Source: a virus
Virus record (IMG/VR): IMGVR_UViG_3300037851_000215
Span: 1 to 64,000 of that record
Reading direction: 5' to 3' (one strand)
Length of the DNA: 64,000 nt
Shown: positions 3,118 through 61,700 of the stretch, piece by piece
Layout of the letters: each line of letters opens with the position of its first letter
How positions within the stretch are numbered: the stretch's first letter is position 1
Position numbers and translations under genes: made by a program
Notes under the pieces: generated by a model
The model's database searches: none
The model's input: the letters and a program-made list of their open reading frames with translations, nothing else
Told to the model about the DNA's origin: nothing

Positions 3118-3582
3118 ATGACACTTACACTTTCTTCTCATGTATTGAGTATTCTAATACTTAGTGTTATTTGCGGTTTTGTTGGATTTGGATTTAGACG
3201 TATGCAAGACGATGGTATGATATTTGAATGGTATAGAAATATGCTTATTAATATTAGAAATGCTAAAGTTAATACACCAGCTTTATGCATTTCTTTATTT
3301 ATGGGGGGTGATACAACTAATTCAAATAGATTTACTATATGGCTTCTTTCAAAGGCAATTAAAATCGGTATGATTAACACTCCTTATATTATCAGAGAGC
3401 TTTTAAAACCACTTGGTTTGTGTGAAATATGTAATACTACATGGATAGGTATAATTAGTGTAATATTATTAACTAAAAAATATACTTGGATTACTCTTTT
3501 AGATTGTGTCTTTGTAGGTGTTGCAAGCGCTGCTGTTGTTATTTTAATTAGCAATTATTATCATAAATTACAACGTGAATAA
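3118..3582 (+). CDS. Membrane protein with CxxC...W motif (DUF1360-like)
   Basis: Three hydrophobic segments; KPLGLCEICNTTW; ATG 3118 follows the previous stop. Confidence 0.55.
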   Translation: MTLTLSSHVLSILILSVICGFVGFGFRRMQDDGMIFEWYRNMLINIRNAKVNTPALCISLFMGGDTTNSNRFTIWLLSKAIKIGMINTPYIIRELLKPLGLCEICNTTWIGIISVILLTKKYTWITLLDCVFVGVASAAVVILISNYYHKLQRE

Positions 3583-4027
3583 AATAATAAAGTTATCTAA
3601 TGGAATAAATATAGCTATCATTGGGAATGTATATCCATTACTTCTTGATGATGCTATGTTTATTCCTAGATATATCAATCCAAATAACATTCCTGATATA
3701 TATGTAACTGGAAATAAAAATGTAATCAAATCTGTAAATAAAAAAACAGTTATGATTGCTGATGTGGTGTTTGATATAGCTGATTGGGTTAAAGATGAAT
3801 TAGATATGTTTACTGAAGAAGTATTATTAGGCAACATTGATTTTGTTATAGCTAATTCAGTTCAATTATTTCCTGCTTATAACTACTTGAGGAGTATTAA
3901 TAGCTCACTTGAATTATATACATTTGATGTATTAGATAATGTTAATGGAATGGATATAGCACGTATAAATTTATTTCTTAAATTTAATCTCAATTTACCA
4001 GTTTATGATAACTTTAAGAATTACTAA
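3575..4027 (+). CDS. Hypothetical protein
   Basis: ORF in a tightly packed operon. Confidence 0.65.
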   Translation: MNKIIKLSNGINIAIIGNVYPLLLDDAMFIPRYINPNNIPDIYVTGNKNVIKSVNKKTVMIADVVFDIADWVKDELDMFTEEVLLGNIDFVIANSVQLFPAYNYLRSINSSLELYTFDVLDNVNGMDIARINLFLKFNLNLPVYDNFKNY

Positions 4028-4553
4028 ACAGAACTTTGTTAAACATAGTTTTGTTATATTTAAAGGTACTTCTGTACAAAATGCTCTTAATAGTTTTGGT
4101 TTCATAAAAGAAATTAAAAATAATAGAGTATTATTATGGTGGTATGATAATTTCGTTCGTAGTGAAGAATGGACTACACTAATTAATTTACAAAAAGATT
4201 ATAGAAGTGTATATCCATATTATAATAATCATCAACTACGTGGTAATATATGGAAACATAGCTTTCTTACTTTATTAAATCGAATAGATGAAAATAAAGG
4301 ATTTAGTAAAATTGTAGTTGATAAACTAACTTACAAGAAAACTCCCCATAAAAATGATAATGTGATTATTAGTAATGCTGTTTTTGTTTTAAATAATAAT
4401 ATAACTAAACTTGAAGGTAAGATAGTTTATATGTATAAAAAGACGAAAACTTATAAAGTAGTTACTGTTGAAGGTAGTTATATACTTAGACGTAGTAATT
4501 TTACTTTATTACCACAAGATTATTTCATTCTTTTATCTATAAGATGTAATTAA
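4005..4553 (+). CDS. Hypothetical protein
   Basis: ORF in operon. Confidence 0.65.
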   Translation: MITLRITKQNFVKHSFVIFKGTSVQNALNSFGFIKEIKNNRVLLWWYDNFVRSEEWTTLINLQKDYRSVYPYYNNHQLRGNIWKHSFLTLLNRIDENKGFSKIVVDKLTYKKTPHKNDNVIISNAVFVLNNNITKLEGKIVYMYKKTKTYKVVTVEGSYILRRSNFTLLPQDYFILLSIRCN

Positions 4554-4554
4554 T

Positions 4555-4779
4555 ATGAAAGTAGAACTTAAAGATGTAGAAGAAGATTATACTACTTGCA
4601 ATTTTTGTAATATATCAATAGAGCATAATACTGATAAGGGAATTGTATCAAAACGTCCATATACTAAAGTAATTGAATTTAGCAATACTAATAATTATCC
4701 AATTGTAGTCAGTATTTGCAAAAATTGTTTATTTGAACTATGTGAAAAAGGAGTTGCTTTATTTAATAGATGTCATTAA
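4555..4779 (+). CDS. Small zinc-finger protein
   Basis: CNFC ... ICKNC pairs. Confidence 0.6.
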   Translation: MKVELKDVEEDYTTCNFCNISIEHNTDKGIVSKRPYTKVIEFSNTNNYPIVVSICKNCLFELCEKGVALFNRCH

Positions 4780-5171
4780 ATATGTTATTTAGTTTTATAA
4801 ATAAAACTGTTGATACAGTTGTTAGAACTCCTGGACGTAAAGTCAGTGCTAGAGTTAAATGGAAGTGCAAAAAAGAAATCTTTGTTGCCATTGTAAATAA
4901 GATTGAATATCCAATTTATAATAGTAATGTACTAGATAAAGATTATATTTTTGCACTTCCTAGTAATACGTTTGTTCCTGCATGGACTAAACGTAGTTAT
5001 TCTATTGTCAATCCAGATGCAGAAGTGTTAGCAATGACTCTTCGATTTTGGGGTAAATACTTTGATAATATGATTATTTATGGAACAGTCGCTAATAATA
5101 TTTTTTATGAAACCAGATATATAAAAGAAATTAAACATGAACCCGATATTTCAGAAATTGTTACAGAATAG
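4770..5171 (+). CDS. Hypothetical protein
   Basis: ORF in operon. Confidence 0.6.
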   Translation: MSLNMLFSFINKTVDTVVRTPGRKVSARVKWKCKKEIFVAIVNKIEYPIYNSNVLDKDYIFALPSNTFVPAWTKRSYSIVNPDAEVLAMTLRFWGKYFDNMIIYGTVANNIFYETRYIKEIKHEPDISEIVTE

Positions 5172-5475
5172 TAGTGGAATTCGTCCTTTTTTAGAATGGT
5201 ATGTAATGAAATATAAAACTATTGAAGTATTTCAACATTTACCATTTACTCATCAAATTGGCGTTTATCTTGAATATTTTGAAGAGATATATAGTTTAGT
5301 TGTATTAGTCAGCCATGTAGGATATAAAGTACAATTTAAAGATAAACGTAATATGATACAAGTTAATCCTGAATATAATCATCATAGATTTACTCATAGT
5401 GAACCCAAGAGTATTATATATGGATATGAACTTGCTATATTTTGGTTATTTGAAAATTTTGATTTACCATTTTAA
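5137..5475 (+). CDS. Hypothetical protein (C-terminal DLPF)
   Basis: ORF in operon. Confidence 0.65.
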   Translation: MNPIFQKLLQNSSGIRPFLEWYVMKYKTIEVFQHLPFTHQIGVYLEYFEEIYSLVVLVSHVGYKVQFKDKRNMIQVNPEYNHHRFTHSEPKSIIYGYELAIFWLFENFDLPF

Positions 5476-5482
5476 AATAATT

Positions 5483-7157: not shown

Positions 7158-7158
7158 A

Positions 7159-8357: not shown

Positions 8358-8376
8358 CGAATTAAAAACTAATATT

Positions 8377-9054
8377 ATGTTACAGATGTTTCAACAATTT
8401 CATTTTAAGGTATTAGGAATTATTTCATTTATTGCATTTTCAGTTTTACTTACAGCAATTATTCCAAATCATGCTGATGATGTAATAGCAGCTTCACGCA
8501 ATGTAGAATATATTATGGATACAGTTGAAGTTAAAGTTCCTATTATTAAAGATGAATTAGTATCCTATTTGTACTGTATTAGATTGATTGAAGCTAATTT
8601 AAATTACAATGCCAGACGAACTGGTAGTCAATATGTAGGTGGATATCAAATTGGTAACAGTGGAAGAAGTGAAATTGGTTTAAAACATATGAATAACGAA
8701 GGTGCATATTCTATTATTTTAAAAGATGATGTACTGCAAGATATGATTATGTTACGTTATTTACAAAATCAATGTATTGAATTACATGATTATTTTATTA
8801 AATATAATAATACTCGTGTAGGTGCTTGGTTTGTAACTAACAGTGGTATCTTAGCTATGAGTCATTTATGTGGTACTAACGCTACTAAAGAATTTTTAGA
8901 TAGTAAAGGTACTAAAATAGCTAAAGATGGCAATAAAAAACCAATGACTGATTATTTACAACTCAATAATTTCAACATTTATGTCGATAGTATTAGCAAT
9001 GATGCTTATTTAAAAAGAATTTTATTTGATTCTAATTTTAGTAACCCCCTTTAA
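8377..9054 (+). CDS. Lysozyme-fold peptidoglycan hydrolase/transglycosylase with N-terminal signal/TM segment
   Basis: N-terminal hydrophobic helix; IEANLNY (candidate catalytic Glu), YVGGYQIG, SGILAMSHLCG, KDGN...TDY. Confidence 0.7.
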   Translation: MLQMFQQFHFKVLGIISFIAFSVLLTAIIPNHADDVIAASRNVEYIMDTVEVKVPIIKDELVSYLYCIRLIEANLNYNARRTGSQYVGGYQIGNSGRSEIGLKHMNNEGAYSIILKDDVLQDMIMLRYLQNQCIELHDYFIKYNNTRVGAWFVTNSGILAMSHLCGTNATKEFLDSKGTKIAKDGNKKPMTDYLQLNNFNIYVDSISNDAYLKRILFDSNFSNPL

Positions 9055-9067
9055 AAAAGAAATATGA
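9046..9067 (+). repeat. Dispersed motif copy CCCCTTTAAAAAAGAAATATGA (identical at 26235-26256)
   Basis: Exact 22-bp match; both copies sit at gene junctions and end in a start codon. Confidence 0.85.
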
Positions 9068-11145: not shown

Positions 11146-11148
11146 CCT

Positions 11149-12061: not shown

Positions 12062-12063
12062 TT

Positions 12064-14264: not shown

Positions 14265-14280
14265 AAAAGTATGTATTTTA

Positions 14281-14311
14281 TTTGCATATTCAAAAACTTT
14301 TTATACCTTTA
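14281..14311 (+). promoter_or_regulatory. Bacteroidota-type promoter (TTTG-N19-TACCTTTA)
   Basis: Spacing and motif match with one deviation; intergenic. Confidence 0.6.
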
Positions 14312-18128: not shown

Positions 18129-18625
18129 CAACATTTCCATTAAATCCTGTTAGAATAGTACTTAGTGTACAAACTAATGTTAGAACTGGTGCCAAAGAAG
18201 TAATATTGTTTACTCCCCTTAAAAAAGAAGAATGTGATTTACTGACAGTTGATGTTAGACGTTATATTCAATTTCCAAAAACTAATTCTGCTAAAACTGA
18301 ACTAGATGCTGCTTTTTTACGTGTTCATAAATTTTCACTATCTAATATACTTAGTATAGGAGATACTAAGTTAGAAACACGTTTAGCTAATATTTATATA
18401 GAAAATACTAGCAGTAAATATAGTGATATATTAAAACGTAACTATAAATGTTTTGTAAATGCTGATTGGAAAAATCCTATTAATAAAGTAAATTTACCAT
18501 ATCACGAAGATGGTGGATGTAGTTGGAATTGTCTTATGGATAAATTAAGACGTCCTGAATTTGGTGTTATTTATACAATGAGTCTTGACATATTTAAAAC
18601 ATTAGAAAATGCAAAAATTGATTAA
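18125..18625 (+). CDS. Hypothetical protein
   Basis: ORF with ATGA overlap. Confidence 0.65.
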   Translation: MTTFPLNPVRIVLSVQTNVRTGAKEVILFTPLKKEECDLLTVDVRRYIQFPKTNSAKTELDAAFLRVHKFSLSNILSIGDTKLETRLANIYIENTSSKYSDILKRNYKCFVNADWKNPINKVNLPYHEDGGCSWNCLMDKLRRPEFGVIYTMSLDIFKTLENAKID

Positions 18626-18902: not shown

Positions 18903-18906
18903 CAAT

Positions 18907-18929
18907 GCTTTCTTTTTTAAGGGGAGTGA
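18907..18929 (-). repeat. Dispersed motif copy TCACTCCCCTTAAAAAAGAAAGC (intergenic); direct-sense copy at 18212-18229
   Basis: Read directly; its 14-bp core TTTAAGGGGAGTGA recurs exactly at 30227-30240 and 51511-51524. Confidence 0.85.
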
Positions 18930-23367: not shown

Positions 23368-24534
23368 ATGAGATTATTTGCACGTGATATTAAGGGCAAT
23401 ATTAAAGAATGGAATATTGCCCTTCTTACCAATACTGAAGCAAAAATTAGTACTGGTAGATTAAATGGCAATCTTATTGAAACTATAATTGAATCCCCCC
23501 ATATAGAGAAAGAGATTGCTAGTAGAATTGCTAAAAAGAGAAAAGAAGGATATGTTAGTTTAGATGATCTTAAGTATACACCATATACTAATTTAACTAT
23601 CAATTCATATCTAGAGTCTAATCTTCCTATATTTAATACAGATCATAATAACAATCTTAAACCTATGAAATGTCAAAAGTTTCAAGAAGGTAAGATTACA
23701 TATCCTGCTATTGCTCAACCTAAACTTAATGGTCTTCGTTGTGTACTTCGTTGGGAAACAAATGAACTTGGTGAAGGTATGTTTAAATATAAACACGAAA
23801 GTGCTAAATTAAGAACCAAAGAAGGATTAGAGTATCATATGCCTCATATTACAGATGGTTTGTCTAAACATTTATTTGTTACAGCAGATGGTACTGATTT
23901 AGCATATGATGGTGAATTATATTGTCATGGTATGGGACTTAATAAAATAAAAGCTAGTTGTCCTATGATTAATACCAGAGGTACACTAAGTAATCCATCT
24001 GAAGATCCTAGTAACATATCGTTTCATTGTTTTGATGTTGCTATACCAGATGTACTACAGTATGATAGATTATTTTTTAGAGAAGAATTACGTAATCATA
24101 ATAATATTCATGTAGTAGGTCATATATTTGTACATTCTGATGAAGAAGTTTTAGCATTTAGAGATCAATGTATAATTGGAGGATATGAAGGATGTGTAGT
24201 AAGAGATATACATAGTGAATATGCATTTGGATTTAGACCTAATTTTATACGTAAATGTAAAAAATATCTAGATTCTGAATTTCTTATAATTGATCTTATA
24301 CCAAAGCCTACAGATGATAGTCTTCCATTATTTATTCTTAAAAATGATATAAATGATGAAACATTTGAATGTAATCCTACTGGTGATTGGACTACACAAC
24401 GTGAATGGATGGAAGATAGATTAAATCTTATAGGTAAATGGGCTACTGTTAAATATATGGAACGCAGTGGTGTTAAGAAAGTTCCTTTTCATGCAAATGT
24501 TATTACAATTAGAAATAAGAAAACAGATGGATAA
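23368..24534 (+). CDS. lig: ATP-dependent DNA ligase
   Basis: Motif I QPKLNGLRC, YDGELY, FDV, YEGCVVR, Y..G.R, K.K, C-terminal OB domain ending in VPFH. Confidence 0.92.
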   Translation: MRLFARDIKGNIKEWNIALLTNTEAKISTGRLNGNLIETIIESPHIEKEIASRIAKKRKEGYVSLDDLKYTPYTNLTINSYLESNLPIFNTDHNNNLKPMKCQKFQEGKITYPAIAQPKLNGLRCVLRWETNELGEGMFKYKHESAKLRTKEGLEYHMPHITDGLSKHLFVTADGTDLAYDGELYCHGMGLNKIKASCPMINTRGTLSNPSEDPSNISFHCFDVAIPDVLQYDRLFFREELRNHNNIHVVGHIFVHSDEEVLAFRDQCIIGGYEGCVVRDIHSEYAFGFRPNFIRKCKKYLDSEFLIIDLIPKPTDDSLPLFILKNDINDETFECNPTGDWTTQREWMEDRLNLIGKWATVKYMERSGVKKVPFHANVITIRNKKTDG

Positions 24535-26234: not shown

Positions 26235-26252
26235 CCCCTTTAAAAAAGAAAT

Positions 26253-26555
26253 ATGAGTAAAACAGAGTTTATTAAAAATCTTAATGAGCATTATACTGCA
26301 AATCGTATAGATGCTTGTATTAATTTCATGCATTCTGTAACCAAATTAAGTATTAGTATGTGTGCTAAGATTATACGTAATTTATGGGGATGTAGCGCAC
26401 CTAAGAAATTTGGTACTAATGTATATAACTTGTTAGAAACTACCGCTAATGATGTAGAATATATGCCATTAGTTAGAAAAGATTGTAGTGTTTATTTGAT
26501 TTATCCAGATGAACACGCTGCTGCATTTGCTTTATATAAACTTAAACAAAAATAA
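26253..26555 (+). CDS. Hypothetical protein
   Basis: ORF in operon. Confidence 0.6.
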   Translation: MSKTEFIKNLNEHYTANRIDACINFMHSVTKLSISMCAKIIRNLWGCSAPKKFGTNVYNLLETTANDVEYMPLVRKDCSVYLIYPDEHAAAFALYKLKQK

Positions 26556-29256: not shown

Positions 29257-32200
29257 TTATCCTCTAAATAGAATGTAGTATTTATTAAATTTATCAATTC
29301 GTTGTAGTTGCTGAACCTTATTTAAAATCGGCACTAGTTTTATAGCATTAACTTTAAGTTTACTATCTTTAGCATATATACCGCTTTGATAAATTCTTTG
29401 TTCATCACTAACGAATGGATAACTCACTAAATTAGCAAAAGTTTTATATATATCAATAGCTGCACTCTGAACAGCAGCAGGTGATTTTAAAATCTTTTGT
29501 CCTTCATTAATAAGTCCAAATGGAGTATAAAACATTAATTCACTAAGTAGTCTATCTACCTGATATACAGTAAAATCATAACCATAATAATTTTCATCAT
29601 CATCATCATCTGGTTTAAGTGATTTAAGAACAAATCCAGCAGCAAGAACAGCACATAGATAAACCATATCTAATAATGCTCTTCTAACATTACCTTGTTC
29701 AAAATCATCTAATGTATTCCAATATAATCTAATATTAGTAGTAAAATGACTAAAATCAGATAATAATCTAGAAATCATATTCCTAAATTCAATTTCTTTA
29801 CCGTTTTCGTCATATCTATTTCTACCTGATGTACCTTTAAGAAATTGAAATAAACTAACATAACTACCTTTATCCCATTCATCTCTACTTTCAGTCCAAT
29901 AACTACTACCAAATTTACTACCAAATCTTTTATTCCAACCAGGACGCATAAACTTCTTAAATTGCATAATCATTTTACCCATAGCTCTCCTACCAAGAAT
30001 ATTACTATCTTCTCTATTGTAGATACCTTGTTCTTTTTGAACTACTTTAAGTACAATAACTTTAAATGCATCTATTTCATGTTCATCAAGTTTAACATCA
30101 CTTTTAAGTTCAGCAATACCATCCTGATTTAAAATAAATGCATCAATAAATCTAGGATATTTATTAAATTCTTCAACTGCTGTACTATCAAGTTTCTTAC
30201 GTGCCTCAATAAATGCATTTTGTTGATTTAAGGGGAGTGACAGAATAAAATCTCTAAGATAATCTTTTTTAGTTTCTTTAAATTCTTCGTCTCTAAAACG
30301 ATTACTTATATAATTATTTAGACGTTCTTTTTGTATATCAGATAATATTTCATTTAATGCTTGTCTATAATTATTATATTTATATTTAGCTAATGAAACA
30401 ATTTTACCATTTATAATACGATGTTGATTAAGCATAGCAAATAATGTAGTATTTTGTAGATAATGTTCACCAATATCATTCATAAAATACATACTATTTG
30501 TACTTAATAAATCTTTCTTTAACATTCCGCTAGTATAATCTTTTTCATTAGTATTTTGAGTTATATCAAAATATTTAATTAAAGCATTAGTTAATGTACC
30601 TGATTTTAATTTACCTAGTGTATTAATCATATCAGGAATAGCTGCAATATACATTTTATCTGCTTTAGTTAAATCGGCATTATTGAAATACCACCCAGCA
30701 ACAGATTCAAGTTGATTTTGTATTTTACCAAATACAATGTTATTTACACCAGCAGTAATATTAAACCACATATTTTTAGCAGAAGAATATTTAATCATAA
30801 TTTTAGCTATTTTGGTAAAAGTACCTTCATCTATATCAAAATTACCATAATAAATAGCTTCAATCCATTCTGCTAAATGTTTTTCTAAATTAGTACCTTG
30901 ACCCTTTTTAGTACCAATTACTGTTTTATCTAATGTTCTACCTGCTAATTTATTTTTTAATAATTCATTTTTACTATTTCGTTTATTAAAATCCATTTGA
31001 CGTAATCTATGTAATGAAGCATCTATATCAAATTTCATACCCATTTTAGCTTTATATATATTAGCTTCTCGTATAAAATTAGAAAATACTTCATATAGAT
31101 TATAGTTAATACGTTTAGCATTTAATTCAATATTTTCAGCACGTATTTTTTTATTTTTATCACGAACTTCTGCTAATGAATTAAAACTACCTCTACCAGC
31201 TTGTCTTATATCATTTAATACATCTTTTTCATAATCTTCTAGTGTTTCATTAAATCGTCTATCTCTAAACTTAATTTCTTCCTCACGTCCTAAAAATTGA
31301 ACCATTGGAATACCAAGTATATAAACAAGTTCATCATTCATACCGACAAATGAATCACTTTTTTTATTTGCAGCATGACTTTCATACCATGCTTCAAGTT
31401 TTTCACTGATAGACATATTCTCTTTATCAAAAGCAGACATAGTAGGAATAAATCCATCATTCAATATAGTTTTTCTACCAAAGTAATCAGTATATTTACT
31501 AATTATTTCAGTAAGTTTACTATAAATAGGATCATCTTTAATAGCTTTCCATTCAGGATTTATATATTTATCAGAAGGAGTTTTAAACATACTATCTCCC
31601 ATTCTAACATATGTTTTATCTCCTTTCTTAATGAAATTACGCTTTTTCCATTCGTTAAATTCATATTCAATTAATTCTTCTTGTTTTTGACTTATAACTT
31701 TTTGAACTTCTTCATCAGAAACAGCAGTAATTTCATTATCCCTAAACCATGCAAGAGCACCATTTATATAACTAGGTGTACCTTTACCGTAAGTTTTAGT
31801 TAAATATCTAAATCTGTTAGCTTTATCAGTATAATATTGTTCCCAATTATATTTTTGAACTAGTTTACCTGTACGTTTACCATTTTTAATTTCAAGATAT
31901 TTAATAAAATCGGCTTCAGTAATAGCAGTTAAAGGTTTACCTAATTTAGCAATAAGTAAATTTTCAAATTCAACTATATCTACATTACCTTCTCTTTTAC
32001 CTTTATTCATAGCTATACTGAATTTTTTTACTAAATTAGCTACAAATGCATTGTTAGTATCAGATAATGCATCTAACCATAGTTGAACGTAACTTTCATC
32101 ATCAGCTACTTCAAATATCTTACGTAAACCATCTAATATTTCAGGATTACTTGTATAATTTAATAATTCAGCTTCATAATAACTTTCTAATAATTTATTA

Positions 32201-35200: not shown

Positions 35201-38200
35201 GTTGTATTTAAATTATCGAACAATCTATTAAATTCTATATTTATAGGTGTGTTATTTTTATATCCTAATATACCATATAAATAAGATTGTGCTTCATCAC
35301 TATATGGAATAAATATATTTTTACCTTTACTAATTTCATTATCCCAAGATTGTACAGATTTACCTGTACGTTTATTTATAAGTTTATATAAAATAGTTTG
35401 ATATTTAGTTTTAATAATACTTATTTCTCTACCACGTTGAATAGTATGTAAATTATCAAAAAAGAATTCACTTAATTCACGTACAATAGGTTGATTAATT
35501 AATGTAGTAGATACATCATAAGTAGAACCAATACTAACTAATAATTTCCAAATAGGAAGAGTATATTCATTAACATTATTAGGCAATGGTTTCCTACCTG
35601 CATCCAATACGTTAGCTGTAATTTGTGCAGAATATGTATCTATATGTTTACCTAAAACGTTAACAAAAGTATTAGCAGGATTATTAGTTAAATATCGATG
35701 TGTTACAATTGCATATTCTTTATTATTACGTGTCTCAAATCTAACATCCTGTTTGTAGTTTTTAATTAATTCTTTTTTATCTATTTCATTAGTAATTTCA
35801 TATTCAATAATAGGTAATGTATCTAAAACAGTACCAATAAATGGACTATTTCTATCAATATTATTTGCTAAAGTAATTCTAGCAATTTGAGCAATAGCAT
35901 TAAACCTATCAATAGAAATAGTAGTTCCTTTTAGATTAACACTTTGTTGTGATTTATCTCTATATTCTTGCTGACCAGCGAATGTAAGAATATTACTATT
36001 TTTACTAAATGGAAATAATACTTTATTTATTTTACTATTTATTTTTTGAATATCATCAAAACTAGAAGTAAAAATAGTTTCTAAAAAATGTGCTGGATTA
36101 GTGAGAATAGAATAATATATATCTACAATCTGATTTTCTCTAGCACGTTTAGTATTTTGTGCTGAAATACTCCAATTTTCAATTATAGCTTTAACTTTAT
36201 TTTTCAAAGCTATATATTCAGGTGTGCTTTTATAATTTATAAATGCTTCTCCGAAATCAGATTGCGTTTTAGCAAACAATTCTTCATGTAAATCAGTAAG
36301 ATTATAAAGTAAAATTCGTTTGTTTTTACCTTTTGATTTAGTAAGTTTAATTTCAATATCACGAATTTTATTTACTACTTGTGTTAATCTAGCATCATTT
36401 TGAATATAATTATTTAATTCAGTATTTTGTTCTTTATATTGTTTTATTAAATTATTGTAATCTGTTAATATAGAAATAATAGTACTTACATTATGTTCTT
36501 GCGATAATACGTGAATTAAATCTTCTTTACTGTCTAATATTGCAGTTACTCTATTATTTAAATCATTTTCTGTAGTACCTGTTATATATTCAATAGTTGA
36601 TATTTTATCAGATTTAACACCATCTATAGTTTCATATTTACGTTGTAAATTATACAACATACTGTATACAGTATCCATATCAAAGTCAGAACCTGTTTGA
36701 GTAATAAATTCATCAGGTAATACTATAGCAGGACTGTTACTATCTGGTAAAAAACCAACTACTTTAAAAACATACATACTATATTTAGCTTCAGTAGGAA
36801 TACGATAACCTATCATAGTCCTTACTTTATCTGGTATAGTATTAATATCAACTAGTTCACCCTCTTTATAAAAATATTTACTCCATCTAGGAAGTAATAC
36901 TTCTGCTTCAATTATTTTTACACCATTTTCATCAAATGTTATATTTGATCGTAATTTAAGATCATTGCGTGAAGTAATTTCATTATGCCAATTTATTCCA
37001 GTAGTATTTTCAAGTTCAGATTGTTTTACTCCTTTCTTTTTATTCATAAATACAGATGACATCTGAGCAGCATGAACTCCAGGAAATTTCTGATTTGTAA
37101 CACCGTTTGTAATAATACTTGTTAAAAGATTTTCAAATTTATTTACAAAAGGACTAAAGAAAATAGGAAGATTAGCATAACCATTATTACCTATATTTAA
37201 TGAATATACTACGTTTTTAGGTAAACCTCTATTTATTGCTTCTTTCTGTAATACTTCTAATATCTTTTCATATTCTATTTCACCTACAATGTTACCATTA
37301 TTATCAATACTAACATCAAATGGTAACATAGTCTTATTTGCACTATGCCATATATTATTATTAAGTAAATCAAAATATTGAGTTTTTAAATCTTTACCTA
37401 ATGTTTCAACACCATTTATATTATATTTAGTATTATCATTTATATTTAAAATAATTTTCTTTGCTATCTGTCGTCCTAATGTATTTACTTCTTCCAATAT
37501 ATGATCTGGAATTTCTAATTGCATATGAAGTCCTTTGTAATTATAAGGACGTTTACCTAAAGTAAGTTCATTAATAATATCGTTATCATCTAGTAATTTA
37601 CCTTTTTTATCTGTTACAGTACCTATATGTAATGAACCTACTTTTTCAGCACTTGCAAAATTAAGTTGTCCAATTCCAACCTGTTTCATTAATTTATTAA
37701 TAGTAGAAAGATCTAGATCTTTAATTAAATCAGGAGTTAATACTATTTCTGCATTTTTAATTTGAACAGGAACCATTTTCTGCAATTCATGTGAATATTC
37801 AAAATCATAAAAAAAATTCTTTTGAATAGCAGCAAATTTAGAAATTTCATCTCTATTTAAAGGTGCTTTATCTCTAACTTTGTCAATAATATCTTTATAT
37901 GAATCATATAAACCAAAACCTTTAATTCTATTTATAAATTCTTCAAAAGTTATTAAAGATACTGAGTCAGCACTATCATTTCTTAGATAAGGGGATGTTA
38001 TATTATATATCTTTAATTCTATAGCAGATAACTTAGGTATATTATTATCTATCTCTTCATCAGTGTATACTTTATTAAGTTTATTTATACGATATGTAGT
38101 AGTACCATCTGGATCTAATATCTGATGTGTCATACGTACTAATTCATTATATATTTTAGATTTTAAAACTACATCTGATACAGTACTAGCATAAAATACA

Positions 38201-41200
38201 CCAGGATTACTGTTAGAAAGACCATTAGCCAATACTTCACCAGCACGTTTGTTTAAGTCGGTTTGTGATATATAATCGGCAATACTACCATGAAATAATC
38301 TAGTTTGTTCTATATTAAATAGATATGTATTTAAAGCATATTCTAATATAAATGTATTATATGTTTTATTTTTTAATAATTTATTAAGATTATCACTATA
38401 AACTACATCTCTATTTTCATTGCGTAAATAACTATTACTAATATAATCATAATATATGCCTAATTTAGAAATAGCTGTATTAGTTTGTTGCTGAATAAAT
38501 CTAAGTACATAATTTTCTAATAAACTTTTAAAATTAGTACCATTCATATCACTAGATAGTGCAACAGCTAAACTAGGACTATTAAGTAAGTGTTCAGTAA
38601 ATGATAAACCATTTAATTTAAAATCATTAAAGGTAGTCATTTTACCTTTATTTATAACACTCATATTTTGTAATGAAAATACATTACCACTATTAGCTAA
38701 ATCAAGTTCTAATTCATTATTTTCATTTAGTTTAAATGATAAATAATTCTTATTTTGATTTTCATCTAATTTATAATGATAATATTTTTGAGTAGATGTA
38801 CTTACATCTGCAATATTAGATTTTAATTTAACTTTACCATCTTCTATTATAACACTACCATCTTCATTTAATTCAAATAGAATTTCTTTAGCAGTTTGCA
38901 TTGCAATCATTTCATCAATGACTACATTAAATAATGCTTTAAAAATAGGAGTATCTTTTATTTTATTTAATCTTTCTTCATTAGGTATATTAGCTGATAG
39001 AATACTATAAAAATTGTTATTTAATTCAATAATAGGTACTTCAAACAACATAGTATGTTTTCTATCAGATGGATTAAGTAAAGGCATTATAGCAGTTTCT
39101 TTACCTACTATTTCCTTTTTACTATTATATTTATATCTACCACCTGCAAGATAATAAACTAAACTTTTAAGTGTCCAATCAAATCTAGCTAAATCTGAAT
39201 ATTCAGTACCTTTATTATCATCACGATTTTTACTACCTTGATATACAAAATTCTTAAATATAGATAGATTATGTTTATTAATACTATTATATCCTAATGG
39301 TATTTTTTTACCTTTTTCTATAGTATAGTTTAATATACCACGACCTTGTTCAATTAAATTACTGTTATCTATACGATCCCCCCATAAAATAAGAGAATGC
39401 TGATTACTTGGAACAAGCGCATATTTAGAAAGAAAAGCAAATATAGATTCATCAGTACCATTACGTAGTTCTTCAAAGAAATTACTAATAAAGCTAGGAT
39501 TTCTAGGATCGAATATTAAATTTCCTTTTGTATTAATAGAACTATGATTAAAATGATCTATTCTAAGAAATTTAACTACATCAGCTAATTCACGTAATCT
39601 ACCAAATTGATTAAAAACTAATTTATTGTTTTTATTATAAAGTTCAATAAATCCATTAGCTTCTTTAGCAAATGGATCACTTTTAATATAAAGAAGTGGA
39701 TTTAATAGTTTATTTATTATATTATTACGATTAAGATTATATTGATGCATTATAGTATCAACATCTATCTCAATACCTATTTTATCAAATAACATAGATA
39801 ACTGTTCAGCAGTTTGATCAGTTATAACTGTAAAATTACGAGTTTGTACAAATAATGCTTTATATGCATCATTCCATTCTTTAATCCAAGTATCATTAAA
39901 TATATTGTTTTCAGCTCTACTTATAATAGTTCCAATCCATTTATTAGCAGTAACATATGAAAATGAATTTCTATTACCACTATCTAAATCGATCTCATTA
40001 CCTAAATAAGTAGTTCTATTTAAATCTATATATGAGTCAATAATAGCTTTATCATATTGAGTAAACCATGTATTAAGTAAATCTGGATCACTTTTAAGTT
40101 TTTGCCAAACTTGTAATAATGATTTACCTATTGGATGTTTACTATTAGATGCAAAATTAAATAGAATATCTAACATTTCTTGCTTATTTAAAGCAGTACT
40201 CATTAAATCTCTAATTTTACCATCTAATTCATTATAATTAAGATAGTTAGCAAACCCTGTTGGAGTTTCAATATTTGATTTAAATATATAATTACCTTGA
40301 TTATCTATAGTAATATTATTAGGATCAATCTCAGGAGTAGTATTAATTAAATTTTTAATTCTATCACTAACTGTTAAAATAGGATGTTGTGAAATAGCTT
40401 GATTTTCATCCCAACTTTTAGATAGATATTCTACTTCATCTTGATAATCATCTATTTCATGAATATTATATCCATTATTTTGAGAAAGTTGAACTTTAAA
40501 TAATTTCCAAAATGCATCATTATTTCTAACTTCATCACGAAGTTTAAATAATAATTCTTTTTGTGAATTAGAAAGTTGTCCTAATTCAGCCGCTTTACGA
40601 CCTTTTCTACCTATATTAGCAAGTATATCTTGACGTATTTTATTCTCAGCAATATCTTTTACTTTAAGATTTTTATATTCATTACTAATTTCAATAAAAG
40701 CAGCTGTCATTAAACTAATAACATTTCTTTCTTCTTCTTCAGAGAAATTAGAACCTGTTTGTTCAGTATTAAGTGTAGAAAGATAAGAAGAAAATTTAAT
40801 AGTTTGTAAATCACGTTCTTCATTAATTTCTACTTCCCACCAATCATTTTCATATTCATCAGTAATACGTTGTGCATTATATAGCTTTTTAAGAATATTA
40901 CCTATACGATTTTCATAAAATGCTTCAATAGGTTTGAGTTTTTCTATACCTTGTGATTTTAAGTCTTGTTTTTCTTTTATTTTATTTTCTAATATATATT
41001 TAACGTTTTCATTATATAATTCAAAAGCTTCATTTTTAATAGTGTTATATCTATTATCAAATTCATTTTTAGTTATTTCTAACCCAGATTTATAATATTT
41101 ATCACCTTTAACACTATGTGTTTTATAATAATGTTCTGTTAATCCATCTTCATTACTATCAAATTTATTAGGATTTTGTAAAGTTGGAAATTTATCAATA

Positions 41201-48561: not shown

Positions 48562-51500
48562 TTATAATAATGAATTAAAATCTTTTATTTTACCTCTAAA
48601 TAATCTTTGTGCATCAGATGCTCTCATTTTACCAGCAGATGTATTAACTATTTTATTTCTACTTTTAGTAGGTATAACAAAATTATCTGATCTAAATTTA
48701 TTAGTTTTTCCATAGCAAGGTTCACCTGTTTTATCATCAACAAAAGTAACATCATTTAAATCTATCGGTTCTTGTAAATTATTTGCAGATGGAATATTAC
48801 TACTAAAAACAGCAAGTTTTTCACTTATATCAATATCACTATCACCAAAATCCCAATCATCTTCTGTAAGTCCTATATCAGAAACTACTCCAGTATAATG
48901 TTGTTCTGTAATAAATTGTTCAAATATAGTATTTAATTCATCTAATTTAGTACCAGTAATACCAAAAGCATTAGCTAATTCTCGTATTATTTCTTTTAAT
49001 CTTGTCCAAAAACTAACAGTAACGTTATCTTTTTCTGTTTTAACTGTATCTAAAAACTTAGCAAAATCAACATCAGTAAGACCATATGTTAATATTTCTT
49101 CAACATCTTTATCATTAATAATAGCTAATAATTTATTATCAATTTCTGTTTTATCTGGTTTAGAAACTAATGCTTTATATTGTTCTGTATTTTTTAATTC
49201 ATCTCTAAATGTAGTAAGTGCATTTAATAATTCAGTACGTGCTTCAATTGATTTACTACCAATTAAACTATGTAGTATTTCATGTACTAATATAAGTGTA
49301 GCACTAGTAGGATTGTTTTTATACGCTTCTACCCACTTTTCATTTACAGATATAGATTTATCAGCAACATTATACCAAGCATATCTATTACTATATTGAC
49401 CAGTAACAATACCATTAAATTTAACATTGTCCGATATAACTAATTGATCTAAAATTGCTAATATAAAATCATATCTACTATCTAATTTAAACGTATTACT
49501 AAATTCTCTAAAAGTAGAAGTTTTTGTATTACTATCTAAATTACTTGTGTCAATATTTATTGCTAATGGTAACCCCCCTTTATTATTGACAGCAGTAGGC
49601 ATAAAGTTACTAATCTTATTACCATCTTTGTCAGTAACCATTCCTACATCAGTAACTATAACATTTGTATTGATTAAATATTCACTATAACTATTGTAAG
49701 TATTACCTAAAATATCAGTATATTTATTACCACTAAAGTTTTTATATTTAACAGTACGAGTTAATTTACCTAATTCTTTAGTAAATTGAGCTAAATCAAT
49801 ATTCTTTTCAACTAATAAATCAGTTCCATTTTTACGTTCAATTCTATTATATTTAATAGAATTTTCATAAAAATTATATATAATAACTTGTTCTCTGCCT
49901 TGTTCATCAATAGTTATAAATCTAGCATCCTTATATGATAAATTTAAAATATTCTTTCTAGCAATACCATCATGATAAATTGTAAATATTTCTTCTATTT
50001 TTTCGTATATTGATGTAGCAATAGTATGATTTATTTCAACAGAATCTGTTTTATCAACTCTAATTTTACCATATTCCTGAATCAATCTAACTACTTCAGT
50101 TAATAATGCATTACCATCAGGAGAAGATAATAAATTACCATTTAATGTATTTAAATAAATTGGAACAGGAATAGTTGTATCTCTTCCTTCAACTCCTACA
50201 TATAAACTATGAGTATATTTAGGTTTAATAGAAACATGTGTATCATTAGGATCAGATACATTTTCTATAATTTTATTATGTGATTTAGTATCTAATTTAT
50301 ATAATTTAACTTTACCAGGAGAATTAATAATAGATAAATTATTAAATACCTTATTACCATTCTTATCCAATGCAATAATAACTGATCCACTAGTAATATG
50401 TGAAATAGTAGAAGAAATAGTTACATCAGGATTAGCAGCAATGACTTTACGTATTTTCTTTACATTAATATGATCTCTATATAATTTATCTTTCCAATTA
50501 TATACATTTTGTAAAACATTCTGTTTATTAAATTCAATAGGTGCTGTACCTGTATCACTTTGTCCATAAAATAAAACATTACATATATGCATTAATGCTT
50601 TATTTCCAGCTGTACTTCTAGGATTAATATCACCTAATAAATCAAATATAATTCCAAAACTATCTTCTTTAAGTAATACTTCAAGTTGTTTATTAGCTTC
50701 AGTTATTGTATCAAATTTATTACTATTATACCAACTTTGAATATGTGGAAACAATCGACTTAATAAATCGAGCCTAATATTTGTATTCTTTATATCTCTA
50801 CTTAATTTATCAATCCAATCGGTACCATCAAAACTATATCTTATTCCATGATGTATAGTGTTCGTTGTAGGGATTGCTGAAATGTTAGTAATACCATCTT
50901 TACTTTTTACACCTACAGATATAGGAATTAAATCTGGATTATTTTTATTTTGGCTGAACTCCTGTTGCGTTGAATATTCAGAATTGACCTGCACTATTAC
51001 TGGTGAATTTTTATCCAACTGATTTAAAAGAAGTTTAAGTAAATCAGCATCTTCATTTGAAGACACCATTATATTACCATTTTCAAGAATAGTATAATTT
51101 ACTTCTCTACCACTAAAAACAAAAGTATTGAGACTATTAATTCCACCTGTTTCATTTATGTAATCTATATTATTAAATTCATATTCTTTATTAATGTTTT
51201 CAATACCAAATTCATGAATAATATCATCTGCTGAAATATTATCTACATATTTACGTGTATTATATGTTCTTGTAGTTTTCGTTTCAGGATTAACAGTTGC
51301 ATTACTTATTATTTCATATGCATCTTTTAAATCATTATAATACTCTCTAAATACTTCAGCACCTACTAACTTAGCAAATTTTGCAGCAATAGATTTAAAT
51401 TTAAAAAATGTATTTTTAGGTTTACCATTATGATCAAATTCATTAAATAATGGATCACCATTTGTACTATCATTTATAATACCAGTAATCCATTTATTAG

Positions 51501-54500
51501 CTCTTTCAACTTTAAGGGGAGTGAGTGGATTTTGTGCAGTAAAATCAATAGCTGGTTTAGTATTATCATCTGAATTAACAGCTCTAAATCCAGCAGCATT
51601 ATTAATATGTTCTGAAACAACTGCTTTATTTGCATCTTCTAATGTAATATCAGCAATATAACCACTAAGTAATAATATTTCATTAATTAATTCTTCTAAC
51701 TTATTAAATTTAGAAAAATAATTAAATACAGCAGTTAAATCTTTTTTAATATTCTGTTTAGCTACATCACTTAATTCATTTCCTTGCATAATAGCAAGTA
51801 ATGTATTATAAATATTGTCTGTACCAGCAGCAGCTTTACGTAATTCATTTTCAACTAATGCTATAATACGTTCATCACGTTTACCTGTATATTTAACAGG
51901 TTCTGTGCTTAATTCATTAGTTTTAAAGATATCACTTAGTTTATCTACTATTTCTTGATTACTAGTTGCAATAGATTCACTAACTGATTTTTGTGAAAGT
52001 CGCCTATTCTTTTCTTCAATTAAAAATTGTTTAGTATTAGTTAAAGAAGATGTATATAATTCAATACGACTATTATCTAACTTAGCTAAAGGATCATTAG
52101 CTTCAGCAAATGGATCGATTTTAGTTTCTTTAATAGACTTAATATAATCGTCTATTTTTGCAATTTTAGCATCAATAGTTTCAGCAGTATCTTTATTTTC
52201 TTTATCTAATTTAATTTCAGCATTAATCTTGTCTTTAAACTGCCTAAATTGATATTCTTGTCTATCATTCTTTTCTTTTTTAAGTTGTTTTTCAACAATA
52301 GGAATACTTTTATCAGTATTTAATAATTCTTCGTACTTAGTATTATCAGCTTGAATAAATATTTCAAATAACTTAGCATCAACTTCTTTATCAATTATAT
52401 CAGAAATAGAATTAAAATCACCAAGTGCTTCGTTATCTCCTAACTCTTTTCTCTTAGCTTTAATATCATTTTTAATTTCTTCAGCTCTAGTTTCTAATAC
52501 TTTTCTTCTAGTTTCGTTATTTTCAGAACTAATATATGTATCAATAAAAGAAATAACTCTACTATTTACAATATTTTCTAATGTACCATCTAAATCTTTA
52601 TCTTTATTCTGTTCCTTAAGAGTATCATATGCAGGATTATTATTTTTTAGTTTACTTATTTCAGTTTTAATATTAGCATATGTTTTCTTATAATGATTAA
52701 TATCATTTTTAATAGAAACTGCTTTACCTAGAATAGCTTCTCTTATCCAAGGTTTAGTAACAGTACTATTAAATATTTTACCATAAACTTGTTTATATGT
52801 AGTTTCAGCATCTAATACATGTTGAGTTAAATCAGCTAATGTAGTGTCAAATGTATTTTCATCTGTAATTCCTAGTTCAATCAATTTAGTTTTAAATTCA
52901 GGATGTTTAAGCATATCAAGTAATAAATCAATATTACCATGTCTACTTGCATTTAAACCTAAACTATAACCTAATGATTGAAGTTCTTTTTTACTAAGAT
53001 TATTTATTGCATTTGCTATCTCAACATCATTGCCTTGTAACTTAGTTCCATTATTTGGATTTATACCATTATTAATTAAATCTAATTTACGTTTAGATTC
53101 AGCTATAATTAAAAATCTATTTTTAATTTCTTCTACTTTTGCATCAGCACTATATGGATTTTTTTCATCAAATAACATTTCTTTAGCTGATCTATACAAT
53201 CTAGTACCACCACTAAATGTAACACCACCTAAAAATCCCCAAAATGCTTGTTCCCATGAAGAAGGATCATTTAAATATTCATTTAATCTATCTTTAAAAT
53301 CACTATCTTTTTCTTTACCTAATAAATATTTACCATACCAATTAGCATCACTTTGTGAAATAGCATTTATAAGTTCTTCTGCACCTTCACTGACTTGTTC
53401 ACCGATAAATATAGAACTCCCCTTTAAAAAAGAAAGTGCTGCCACATTAGATTTAGCTGCGGCTCTAACTGCTGATTTACCAGTAGCTCCTAATTCTTGT
53501 TTAACAGGAGTTAATAAATTAGCTTGATATGCAGTAGCTTTTCCAGATTGTAAACCAGCTCTAGTAATAACTTTGTTAGGTTTGAATATAGGAGCTAATT
53601 GCATCATATCAAATACAAGATTAACAGCATTCATTCCATAATTCTTCCATGCTGCTTTACTTGCAATAAATTCAGCTAAACCTGTTTTAGTAGCCGTTTT
53701 ATGTTCTTTGATATATTCTTGTCCAATTTCAGAAGAAAGTAGTTTATTATATTCATTATCATCTGAAATAGTTTCTAATACTTCATTTCTAATAGTATTA
53801 AAAGATTGACTACTTTCTCTCATGTTCTCAGCATTACGCATAGCAAGAGAAGAAGTCATTAATTGTTGCCAATATCTTTCAGTATCAGTTATATCAGAAG
53901 CAATACCTAATCCTTTTCTAATAGCTTTTGTTTTACTAGCTTCAGAAAGTGTTTTTAATAATTTACTAAAATAACCAGTTGCTTTACTAGCACCTAATGC
54001 AGGAATAAACAAACCTGCTGTACTAAATACACTTACAAAATTACCAGTCCACCAACCTAAATCTTTCCAATCAAATGCTTTGTCTGGATTATATCTAAAA
54101 ATAGGATTAGTTTCTTTTAATTCTTCACTTATATTATCTGCTAATTTAGTAAAAAAGTTATTAAAATCAGCATCTTTATTAAAAATCTCTTCAAACAAAC
54201 TAACAGGTAATTCTAATAAACTACCAGCACCACCAATAAATCCTTGAGCTAATATTTCACCTACTCCACCCTGTACAAACATATTACCAATCTTACTACC
54301 AGCAGATTGATTAGCAGCAGCTTGTCTTTCTAAATTAACATTAGGATAAATTTCATTGATAAATTTTCTATATTTATCAATATTTTCAAAATTGTATCCA
54401 ACTAAACTTTCTTGAATAGTAGGTTTAGCAACAACATCATATCCTAATGCCGTATTTATAGATTTAGGTGCTTCTTTAGAACCAGATAAAGCAAGTGATA

Positions 54501-58751: not shown

Positions 58752-61700
58752 AATACATTTGTTACATCAATGTCAACATTAGATATACGTAATTGATAAT
58801 TATTACTATCATTTAAATATTTCATTCTAGCAATAACAAATTTAGTAATAAATTGTGATTTATCATACCAGTTTTTAGATAAATTAAGTGAAGCAGTTAC
58901 TAAATCAAAATTATTATCTAAAACTGATAAATTAGGAGAAGTTAAATAATCTTTAATATCATTAAATATCCATTCACCATCTTGATATAATGTATTGCCT
59001 ATTTCCTGTAATACATATGGAGCTGTACTACCATATGTATATTCTTTTTTAACTACTGTTATTTCTTCACTACATAAATTTTTAGAATAAAATAATAAAC
59101 TATGAATTGTACTATTCCAATAATTAATGCCAGATTTATATAAATTAGAAGTCCATTTAAAAGACTTTAATAAAAATCTTCTATTTTTATTATCATTAAA
59201 TATCCAATCTATAATAGAATAATTATAAACAGAATTATAATAACCATAGTTACCAGTAAACATTTTTCTAAAAATAGTATTACCACCCGTTTCTATAGCA
59301 TACATCATTCCATTACTATTCCATATATATTTATCAGGAGTATAAGAATGAAATGCAATCCAAAGTCCAGTTTCAAATTGAAAACTTAAAGTTAAATTTA
59401 AAATAATACTAGTATTACTATTTTTAATAGTAACTAATAATCTTTTATATAAATCATCATATCCTAATATAACACCACTACCTATTGTTTCTTTAGTGTC
59501 GAAAGCCATAGTAGTTTTTACAGTAGTTCTAAACCAATCTTCAATACCTAATTTACTTATTTCATTTAATTTATCAGAAATTTGATAAACACTACCTCTA
59601 TTCAAATCAACTACTATAAGTCCATATGGTGTAAGAATAGTACCTTCTCTATTCCATGGTTTAATATAATTACCATCAGCATCGTGTAATTCTTCTAATG
59701 GTCTATCAAACATATCAGTAGATTTAAGAGCAATATCAATATCAGTTGCTCTTAATTTGTCCATTACTATTCCTCTATAAATACTAAATTCAGTTTGAAT
59801 ATATGTAATATAATCATTACCAAGTGCTTTATATATAGCACCTTTATTTGTAGGAATATCGAAGTAATCTAATATCTTATATTTATGCCAATATTTAGAA
59901 CTACTTTCTAATGGTTGTGGTATAGAACTTTGAATACGATTAGGATAATAAGTATTTATATTAGTTAAATCATCATCTATACTATCTTGTCTTAATGTAT
60001 TTAATAAATGATATAAATTGCTATAAATATAATAATTAGCAATACCTGCATCTTGCATTGCTTGAATATATGTTTGTACATTTTCATTATTAAATACAGT
60101 AATATCAGTTAAAGGAAAAAACTTTTCATATTCGTTTTCACCTTCATATCTCATACCAGTATTAAGAATACTTTCAACAGGAAAATACCAAACAGAAGGA
60201 ACTATATCTTCATCATCATTAAGCACAAATCTTAATACAGAATTATGACCAACATAGTTATCCCCCCCATATAAAGAAAATGCACTAGTAGCACCGAGAC
60301 TTTTAATAACACCTGTACTAACTAATTCTTGATTACTAAAATTGAGATAAACATCATTCTTAATATTTATAAAATTAACTAAACGTTTATCAAAGCTACC
60401 ACTTTCTGTTTCAAAATAATAACAATTTTCTTTATTTTCGTTACTAGGTACTGTTGCAGTACTATAAGCAGGTAAATATTTTATAAGATTAACTTCACTA
60501 TATACAGCTGTTTGTAATGTATAATTAGTTATTTCTTTAATATAAGCACCATCTGTATAATCAGTTGATTGTAAATTTAATTCAGCTTTAATATGTGATG
60601 GTATTATATTAAGATTATTAGCCATACTATCAAATCCATGAAATCTATATCCTATACCATCTTCAAATGCTAAACTTTGATCTAACATAAGTTGATCGTT
60701 AAGAGTACGTTTAGCATATAATATTTCCCAACCATCTACAACAGCAGATAAAGAATTTCTTATAGCAATCGGTATATTATTCCAATCTAATGCAATACGA
60801 AGTCCTAATATTTCTTGATTAGAGGTAGCTTCGTATTCAGATATAGTACATCCATTACCTTGTTCAATAGATACAACAAATCCACCATCGCTAGCTGCAC
60901 TTAAACAAGATACTTCTATTGTAATATAATCTCCTGTATTTAATTCAATATCTTCATTACAAGATAAAGTTATTAATTCAGGTGTGGTAGTTGCTACTTG
61001 TGATAGATTTACTATAGTAGACTCAGTATAAGTGCTATCACTATTCTTTTTATATTTTTTAATTAATAAATATGCGCTACCTTTAGTACCACTATATTCT
61101 ATTACTTGATAATCTATATCAAAATTAAGATTTATAGTAGTATTATATTTAGCAGTATATGTATTTACTAAAGATATACCTGGACCAGCTATTGTATAAT
61201 CTCCTAGAGAACCAACTTTATTATTAGTTAATGCTCCATAATAACCATTTGTACTATAATTAAATTCATCTGGTGTTAATGATATAGTATTAACTAATGA
61301 TGCATCATTTACTGTATGTACTACACCACCTTTCCATCCATGTAATTGACCAGCACTTGGAAATCTATGATGACGTACTTTATTATTACCTAAATTATCA
61401 CCATATTTATTACCATATGTTTCATTTTCATTTTCCCAAAATCCCATTTTACCATAATAATTACCTTGTTTACTAGCACTACTAGTAAGTTTGTAATTAT
61501 CTATAGCATCACCATCTACAGTAGTTTGTGCACTATTTTCAGTTCCAAGTGCTTCTCTACCAGGAATATGATAAATTCCATAATATCCACCAGTTTTAAG
61601 TCTAAGACCTAAATATAAAGCATATACTTCATCACTTCTAAATCCACGTTTATTAAAAATAAAAACACTATCTTTATAACTATTTTTTGTAGTAGATAAA

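Follow-up and report, generated by a model that had tools for sequence, protein, structure and literature searches.

Why would an AT-rich phage genome carry the same C-rich word of about twenty bases again and again, in either orientation and in the middle of its genes? This question is raised by positions 1-64,000 of the IMG/VR virus record IMGVR_UViG_3300037851_000215, a stretch of 64,000 nucleotides referred to here as the window, which belongs to a crAss-like phage genome of 94,218 bp and 28% GC (G000). The original prediction, made from the letters of the window, described a dispersed motif CCCC-W(7-9)-GAAA(NTGC) as a repeated cis-acting site on which selection appeared to act at the DNA level. 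The analysis reported here leads to the conclusion that the word is a repeated, strand-specific cis-acting signal selected at the nucleotide level, and that an environmental clade here uses an AT-rich spelling of the C-run word carried by the gut phages p-crAssphage and PhicrAss002.

Form of the word and number of copies

The sole public sequencing run containing G000 is one freshwater metagenome, available as contigs only. A single family-B DNA polymerase (PolB) query retrieved no IMG/VR relative while a PolB alignment query did, with PolB relatives at 60-66% identity in the protein search. An alignment of a segment of the virion RNA polymerase (vRNAP) retrieved only G001 (92,699 bp) and G002 (92,168 bp), two complete IMG/VR genomes that were compared whole. 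Both are syntenic with G000, with a median protein identity of 55-58%.

The consensus of the word is YCCCC-WT-WAA-purines-RTG over ~21 bases. Its 5' part combines an A with pyrimidines and with a run of 4-7 C, often as ACTCCCC, and the run is followed by a W, a T at +2, W-A-A and a C-free purine tract. The T at +2 was observed in 38 of 42 copies pooled over the three genomes, as well as in all listed copies of p-crAssphage and PhicrAss002. At the 3' end, the NTGC first proposed gives way to RTG, mostly located 13 nt past the C run (range 10-17).

G000 contains 18 copies, 14 of them within the window, while ~15 were counted in G001 and ~10 in G002. Every coordinate reported before was recovered, including seven further copies, the two exact matches (9046-9067 = 26235-26256 over 22 bp; 32329-32349 = 53419-53439 over 21 bp) and the presence of TTTAAGGGGAGTGA at 18916, 30227 and 51511. 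The word was also said to be non-palindromic, which held, and to account for a large share of the runs of four or more C (C4+ runs). This share amounts to 14 of 27 runs in the window and to 17 of 51 in the whole genome, plus one CCC variant.

The description of copies lying between genes and, in both orientations and several frames, within them extends to the whole genome. Thirteen of the 18 copies are fully in open reading frames (ORFs), 6 in sense and 7 in antisense orientation and in different frames, one is at a gene junction and four are intergenic. Three copies supply gene starts, namely those of PolB at 9064, ORF 26253 and ORF 68322-68807. All three genomes carry a copy in the intergenic DNA from which the leftward and rightward gene blocks diverge, and none was found in the capsid module (~17 kb, 75.8-92.5 kb) of G000, G001 or G002.

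Selection on the nucleotide sequence

The strict form CCCC-W9-GAAA was observed 5 times against 0.05 in dinucleotide-preserving shuffles, and words of the motif topped the over-representation lists at k=10 and k=12. A codon-preserving control, as suggested by the original prediction, was made of 200 synonymous-codon shuffles within genes per genome, in which every protein and the codon usage of each gene were kept. With a loose definition, 15 copies were counted in G000 against a shuffle mean of 3.5, most of which is due to intergenic copies that were left unshuffled. In the relatives, 16 copies were counted against 4.0 and 8 against 2.6, and the observed count was reached in 0/200 shuffles in each of the three genomes.

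Synonymous-site conservation in the relatives, the other test that had been put forward, is likewise present. In codon alignments, copies in the same codons of two or three genomes were found at 32329, 39378, 60262, 18215, 4344, 30216 and 53419, to which the intergenic copy at 18903 has to be added. For instance, at site 32329 the peptide varies (LSFLKGW / HSFFMGA / TSFIKGV) and the DNA word stays. G or C is found at only 2-3% of 4-fold sites and GGG represents 2.5% of glycine codons, yet both members of aligned glycine pairs are GGG in 11 of 23 cases at word sites against 1 of 2499 elsewhere. At site 60262, the two glycine codons read GGG GGG, GGG GGG and GGG GGT in G000, G001 and G002, respectively. 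The excess over codon shuffles and the conservation of rare codons in relatives therefore indicate that selection acts on the nucleotide sequence, in agreement with the initial view of a repeated cis-acting word. In parallel, the word turns over, as some copies are private to one genome or shifted within the same gene.

These results bear directly on the proposal that the word is a signal in RNA or protein, or carries no signal, and reflects translation initiation, a shared peptide S-F-L-K-G, complementary early and late mRNAs or composition. Strong initiation regions of Bacteroidota have an A-rich tract before the ATG, which the A-rich tract of the word resembles; moreover, three copies serve as gene starts and antisense copies encode similar peptides. 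On the contrary, the ATG of most copies opens ORFs of 1-20 codons, gene starts in G000 generally lack the word, and the copies, some of which are in non-coding DNA, keep to no single orientation or frame. The word is also lost in codon-preserving shuffles and its rare codons are conserved. Such a reading is largely refuted by the shuffles, the codon alignments and the GGG conservation, and is considered extremely improbable.

Several more specific candidates were rejected. Small ORFs behind the ATG of the word are mostly of 1-20 codons, and a peptide motif, a cleavage site or a codon-usage effect was ruled out by the codon shuffles and the GGG conservation. A mobile element (of the miniature inverted-repeat type) was dismissed because the flanks of identical copies are unrelated, and many copies arose by substitution in aligned codons. 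Scans with Rfam and for tRNAs gave only a tRNA-Leu (924-1008), the word not being an Rfam RNA, and in the metagenome contigs neither joints nor ends nor variants were seen at its copies. Other over-represented words, TAATTCA and ACCTTGTTC, were attributed to codon-pair effects. Outside the word, positions 19751-19763 hold two C4 runs (CCCCAATATCCCC, minus strand) that are conserved in all three genomes. They are not the word and represent most of the conserved CCC proline codons outside word sites.

The word in other crAss-like phages

In p-crAssphage (BK010471), 32 of the 71 C4+ runs consist of ACTCCCC or AGACCCCCC followed by GTRGAGGATGGA, split 18:14 between the two strands. In PhicrAss002 the spelling is CCCCC followed by DTARAGGAG, and its copies CCCCCTTAAAGAAAGGTG and CCCCCGTAGAAGATG bridge to the spelling of G000. 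A shared core was defined as a C run of at least four, D-T-D-R-A and a purine tract, reversed sequences being used as controls. It was found 11 times in G000, 10 in G001, 6 in G002, 30 in p-crAssphage and 16 in PhicrAss002 (50 kb, half of the genome), against 0-2 in the reversed controls. The shared-core matches across these genomes therefore identify the G000 word as an AT-rich, ~6-nt-longer spelling of a signal that some of the Crassvirales share.

The likeness to the word of the gut phages concerns the C run of 4-7, D-T-D-R-A, the purine tract and the frequent ACTCCCC head, as well as a count of 15-32 per genome, the copies being on both strands and for the most part in ORFs, evenly placed per strand and spelt in a lineage-specific way. 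There are also differences. The tract is A-rich in G000 and RTG follows the run at ~13 nt rather than at the 7 nt of p-crAssphage. Compared with the gut phages, the clade of G000 has fewer copies and favours the + strand, no shared positions were found over this evolutionary distance, and its capsid module lacks copies whereas that of PhicrAss002 has some. Between this clade and p-crAssphage, one vRNAP site could be aligned and no copy was present there; within the clade, positions are shared. Beyond these phages, phi14:2 gave a single shared-core match over its first 50 kb and five other PolB-related loci gave 0-1, while the local spelling showed no excess in ~1.5 Mb of more distant PolB relatives and an exact 17-mer search of IMG/VR gave only single chance matches.

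The word system thus extends from the gut phages into a freshwater clade. Comparison of the spellings leaves the C run, the T at +2 and the purine tract as constant positions and indicates that the word tolerates an A-rich spelling ~6 nt longer. The word can serve to recognise this phage group by sequence, and it also defines concrete oligonucleotides and mutants to be tried in carriers that can be cultured, such as PhicrAss002. Searches of the literature on crAss promoters, transcription start site maps and the p-crAssphage word yielded no description of it, in line with the earlier remark that no function had been described. That such a word is selected inside essential genes, even per strand and re-spelt by lineage suggests a DNA transaction not yet described, the reader of which co-evolves with the word.

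Strand and spacing

The copies are distributed 12:6 (+:-) in G000, 10:5 in G001 and 9:1 in G002, the two strands being interleaved along the genome. Among leftward genes (29257-91970), the + bias equals the background G-run excess of coding strands, whereas among rightward genes (15-29178) the sense orientation is favoured, opposite to the background; no single genome-wide polarity is therefore read. This disagrees with two functions initially considered. A KOPS-like polarity is expected to show one orientation or a switch, and vRNAP sites for transcription-driven genome entry should be in one orientation, while the copies are on both strands, interleaved and even per strand. Replication-strand skew was examined as well and rejected, as skew at 4-fold sites tracks transcription only.

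Spacing on each strand is more even than random, with a coefficient of variation (CV) of 0.48 (P 0.008) for the + strand and 0.42 (P 0.03) for the - strand of G000, and of 0.43 (P 0.006) for the + strand of G001. For the + strand of G002, evenness was not significant (P 0.21). In p-crAssphage, the + strand has a CV of 0.31, with 0/3000 random placements as even, and the - strand a CV of 0.50 (P 0.005). Pooling both strands removes the evenness, since copies on opposite strands may be close together. The suggested period of 4-5 kb is hence refined to an even spacing on each strand. Since this evenness is seen regardless of gene direction, a transaction along single DNA strands is favoured and gene transcription or translation is disfavoured. 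Among known transactions, site-specific nicks and start sites for primer or RNA synthesis match this pattern best.

In G000, all 6 - copies have a + copy within 0.4-2.1 kb (P 0.026), a weak result that was not significant in G001 (P 0.14) or p-crAssphage (P 0.66). Two of the - partners occupy a different place in a relative, yet near the same + copy (range 3288-53438). Pairing of opposite copies through inversions or hairpins was rejected, as no joints were seen in metagenome contigs and pair members are no more alike than others. In p-crAssphage, the three tightest outward-facing opposite-strand pairs, 31-124 bp apart, are all intergenic (22904-22935, 28080-28180 and 95748-95872) and two of them adjoin the two RepL-like genes; such pairs are candidate origins or bidirectional hairpins.

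The strand distribution also weighs on the idea that the word is the site of a phage nickase and that packaged DNA is nicked there, as in T5/BF23, phiKMV-like phages and Pseudomonas phage tf. The resemblance is real in that nick motifs (5'-TACT/RTGMC-3' in tf) are short, lineage-specific and located in genes irrespective of their direction (PMC3517423), just as the word, whose consensus depends on the lineage, forms ~15-30 sites per genome within genes of either direction. In phage tf, 14 sites lie in a genome of two convergent gene blocks, and the nick consensus of phiKMV is bipartite and 19 nt long (PMC3517423), both of which are comparable to the word. Nick motifs are present in ~4-14 or more copies (PMC3517423). 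In addition, G000 encodes a DNA ligase and the + strand is favoured in the three genomes (12:6, 10:5, 9:1). Nevertheless, this reading is weakened because in all described nick systems the sites, of 7-19 nt, are on one DNA strand (PMC3517423), while full copies of the word are on both (12 + and 6 - in G000, 10 and 5 in G001). Opposite copies 31-124 bp apart in p-crAssphage would endanger the duplex, and no conserved nickase was found, the HNH ORF 11555-12061 being without orthologue in the relatives. Localized nicking is thus regarded as rather unlikely.

Orientation-specific copies that are evenly spaced on both strands recall Chi. In this case the word would be a phage-private, Chi-like self-tag, read on one strand by a helicase-nuclease or translocase, that protects DNA or directs recombination. 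Even spacing on both strands means that any break would be near a correctly oriented copy, and the phage encodes Dda/RecD-like SF1 helicase, RecT-like and Gam-like proteins. Like Chi, KOPS and DNA uptake sequences, the word is oriented, dispersed and kept inside genes. However, those words are 5-12 nt long, have cellular readers and are shared by bacterial groups, whereas this one is phage-private and re-spelt by lineage. Chi and KOPS in particular are words of 5-8 nt read by host enzymes, so phages of one host genus should share the word, yet the spellings of p-crAssphage and PhicrAss002 differ. There is no orientation switch along the genome, and bacterial genome contigs gave, among the matches listed, only single chance matches in unrelated taxa, which is weak evidence as to the host. 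The original prediction had mentioned a Chi-like signal, but a Chi-type word of a host enzyme is a poor fit to ~21 nt and to spelling changes between phage lineages, and even the phage-private version is judged very unlikely.

A possible start signal for RNA synthesis

The reading that we tentatively favour, as a possible rather than a likely one, is that the word is a strand-specific start signal for the synthesis of primer or short-transcript RNA. In such a model, template-directed RNA synthesis would start at each copy on the strand bearing the C run. The T at +2 and the base following it would play the part that the initiation trinucleotide has for primases, the template C run on the 5' side of this T would give the RNA a G-rich and stably paired 5' part in a genome of 28% GC, and the purine tract of 12-14 nt located 3' of the T would be the uncopied recognition part. 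Even spacing per strand would then offer a strong start site to every stretch during discontinuous or strand-displacement DNA synthesis.

Known primases offer a parallel. T7 primase (gp4) prefers 5'-GGGTC-3', in which a G/C run stands beside the initiating T, and the start sites of DnaG are 5'-CTG and 5'-CTA-3'. The word resembles primase sites in having a nearly invariant T flanked 5' by strong bases, which would be copied into the primer, and would likewise be read on one strand. It differs from them in being ~21 nt long, rare and conserved, and in a genome with no recognisable primase gene, whereas primase sites are of 3-5 nt, occur frequently and do not keep their positions.

A phage protein differing between lineages would act as the reader. 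The phage's own two-barrel RNA polymerase and an unrecognised primase are candidates because there is no recognisable primase: neither primase nor DnaB had a Pfam or PHROGs match in G000 or p-crAssphage, although divergent proteins could be missed by these searches. In phi14:2, DnaB and a primase are annotated, and the first 50 kb show no excess of the word (the single shared-core match). The virion RNA polymerase of phi14:2 transcribes single-stranded DNA (10.1101/2020.03.07.982082). The tight, outward-facing intergenic pairs of p-crAssphage, two of them beside RepL-like genes, are also consistent with start sites. The replication modules of G000 (5685-18128) and p-crAssphage (1-19314) contain several conserved proteins of 200-430 aa without family. 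Three other proteins, the alpha C-terminal-domain-like (15-452), KH (1487-1834) and HNH (11555-12061) ones, were considered and set aside as unlikely readers, each of them being absent from at least one of the three genomes.

Several points weigh against a start signal for RNA synthesis. The missing primase match may reflect divergence only. The purine tract of 12-14 nt and the RTG end are not explained by primase sites of 3-5 nt, start sites 5-8 kb apart on each strand would be few for Okazaki priming, and the capsid module of ~17 kb (75.8-92.5 kb) is without copies in the clade while that of PhicrAss002 has some. Finally, several copies abut start codons, a location not predicted by a pure replication signal.

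A more specific version would be that crAss phages without recognisable primase mark each strand at regular intervals with a private signal of ~20 nt, at which the two-barrel RNA polymerase or an unknown primase makes G-started primers. This version is held to be decidedly unlikely. If it were true, the giant virion RNA polymerase family would double as a replication priming system, including in the most abundant human-gut phage.

Copies at gene starts

Intergenic copies would be accounted for if the word were the site of a phage protein that controls or organises the genome, whether as an operator or roadblock, as a site for an IHF-like bender or as an RNA polymerase promoter read from the G-run strand, in either orientation. 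Consistent with this, a divergent intergenic copy is present in all three genomes and copies abut the starts of PolB, ORF 26253 (also in G001) and ORF 68322-68807, the two start-codon copies at 9046-9067 and 26235-26256 being identical over 22 bp. IHF-like genes were found as well. The opposite strand resembles a short promoter followed by a +1 GGGG. Like the promoters and terminator motifs of phage RNA polymerases (T7-like phages, P23-45), the word is of ~20 nt and varies by lineage, and on the other strand it ends in a G run similar to a +1 GGG start. A precedent for such use is the virion RNA polymerase of P23-45, for which conserved motifs are promoters and a 26-nt motif lies at terminators (10.1101/2022.12.01.518664).

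On the other side, phage RNA polymerase promoters are 5' of genes and in sense orientation, while most copies of the word are intragenic and in both orientations, 13 of the 18 being fully intragenic with a split between sense and antisense. Even spacing per strand is not expected of operators or gene promoters. Early transcripts of phi14:2, made by its vRNAP, have no common upstream motif, and the middle promoters of crAss phages are sigma70-like and mainly intergenic (10.1101/2020.03.07.982082). The TAnnTTT boxes seen 5' of some copies are explained by coding sequence. Altogether, a binding site or promoter of this kind appears rather improbable.

Host-type promoters were also discarded. The word contains neither of the sigma-A boxes of Bacteroidota (TTTG at -33, TAnnTTTG at -7), as had been stated before, and the -7-like TAnnTTTn found 5' of 4-5 copies falls in the coding end of the upstream gene.

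Copies in the window and neighbouring genes

The 14 copies of the window are listed in Table 1.

Table 1. Position, spelling and context of the copies of the word in the window
Position	Strand	Word	Context	Relatives
3288..3308	-	CCCCCCATAAATAAAGAAATG	antisense in ORF 3118-3582; coding strand ..ISLFMGG, GGG GGT	
4344..4362	+	CCCCATAAAAATGATAATG	sense in ORF 4005-4553	word kept in G001 (91294), CCT in G002
9045..9066	+	CCCCCTTTAAAAAAGAAATATG	across stop of ORF 8377-9054; ATG opens the family-B DNA polymerase gene (9064-11145)	
18215..18234	+	CCCCTTAAAAAAGAAGAATG	sense in ORF 18125-18625	same codons in G001 (13305)
18903..18924	-	CCCCTTAAAAAAGAAAGCATTG	intergenic (18902/18964)	position and orientation kept in G001 (14033) and G002 (28706)
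23495..23518	+	CCCCCCATATAGAGAAAGAGATTG	sense in ATP-dependent DNA ligase gene 23368-24534	G000 only
26235..26255	+	CCCCTTTAAAAAAGAAATATG	intergenic; ATG starts ORF 26253-26555	word at same junction in G001; stop-to-start spacer is TTTATT alone in G002
30216..30235	-	CCCCTTAAATCAACAAAATG (weaker copy)	sense in 4410-aa virion-RNAP-like ORF 29257-42489	full copy in G001 (26615)
32329..32348	+	CCCCTTTAAAAAAGAAAGTG	antisense in ORF 29257-42489	word in all three genomes, all with rare GGG
37977..37994	-	CCCCTTATCTAAGAAATG	sense in ORF 29257-42489	G000 only
39378..39399	+	CCCCCCATAAAATAAGAGAATG	antisense in ORF 29257-42489	conserved in G001 (35832) and G002 (50301)
51499..51519	-	CCCCTTAAAGTTGAAAGAGCT (partial copy: ACTCCCC head, weak 3' half)	sense in ORF 48562-54528	
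53419..53438	+	CCCCTTTAAAAAAGAAAGTG	antisense in ORF 48562-54528	word in G002 (57188), CTCC in G001
60262..60282	+	CCCCCCCATATAAAGAAAATG	antisense in ORF 58748-62971	conserved in G001 (51451) and G002 (64494)

The rightward genes form the replication module and encode a Dda/RecD-like SF1 helicase, UDG, the family-B polymerase, an SNF2 helicase, a RecT-like protein and a dNMP kinase, then ThyX, the ATP-dependent DNA ligase, a Gam-like protein and dUTPase. The same gene order is found in the replication module of p-crAssphage. The leftward genes comprise the virion-RNAP-like giant and large virion proteins, followed by the capsid module; a protein region of 1407 aa had no phage match. In G001 and G002, the virion-RNAP-like protein and a 1988-aa protein are fused in one ORF, of 5824 and 6063 aa respectively. 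In G000 the two ORFs are apart (29257-54528), with a cassette of ~6 kb (42502-48560) between them.

Some genes of the replication side are less conserved. ORF 15-452 matches the C-terminal domain of the bacterial RNA polymerase alpha subunit (PF03118, E 1.6e-10, above the cut-off) and is absent from G001 and G002; its head appears twice because the ends of the G000 contig carry a 158-bp repeat of 97.5% identity. A small KH_2 protein of the uS3/Era type (1487-1834, E 7.6e-6) is present in G001 and not in the complete genome G002. The tRNA-Leu at 924-1008 (anticodon TAA) is the sole tRNA of G000, and G001 and G002 have none. The HNH ORF (PF14279), which lies two ORFs 3' of the DNA polymerase gene and has no orthologue in G001 or G002, is probably a mobile homing-type gene.

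Beyond the window, positions 91970-92690 form a divergent intergenic region of ~700 bp that contains a copy of the word, a C-poor stretch of ~300 nt and repeated RTGATA boxes. A block of this region, before the first rightward gene, is conserved in all three genomes, and its hairpin has a stem that varies by paired substitutions (CCTGTCA..TGACAGG in G000). The block is a candidate origin, leader or small RNA. In phi14:2, highly transcribed non-coding regions were observed at a place similar to that of the divergent region of G000.

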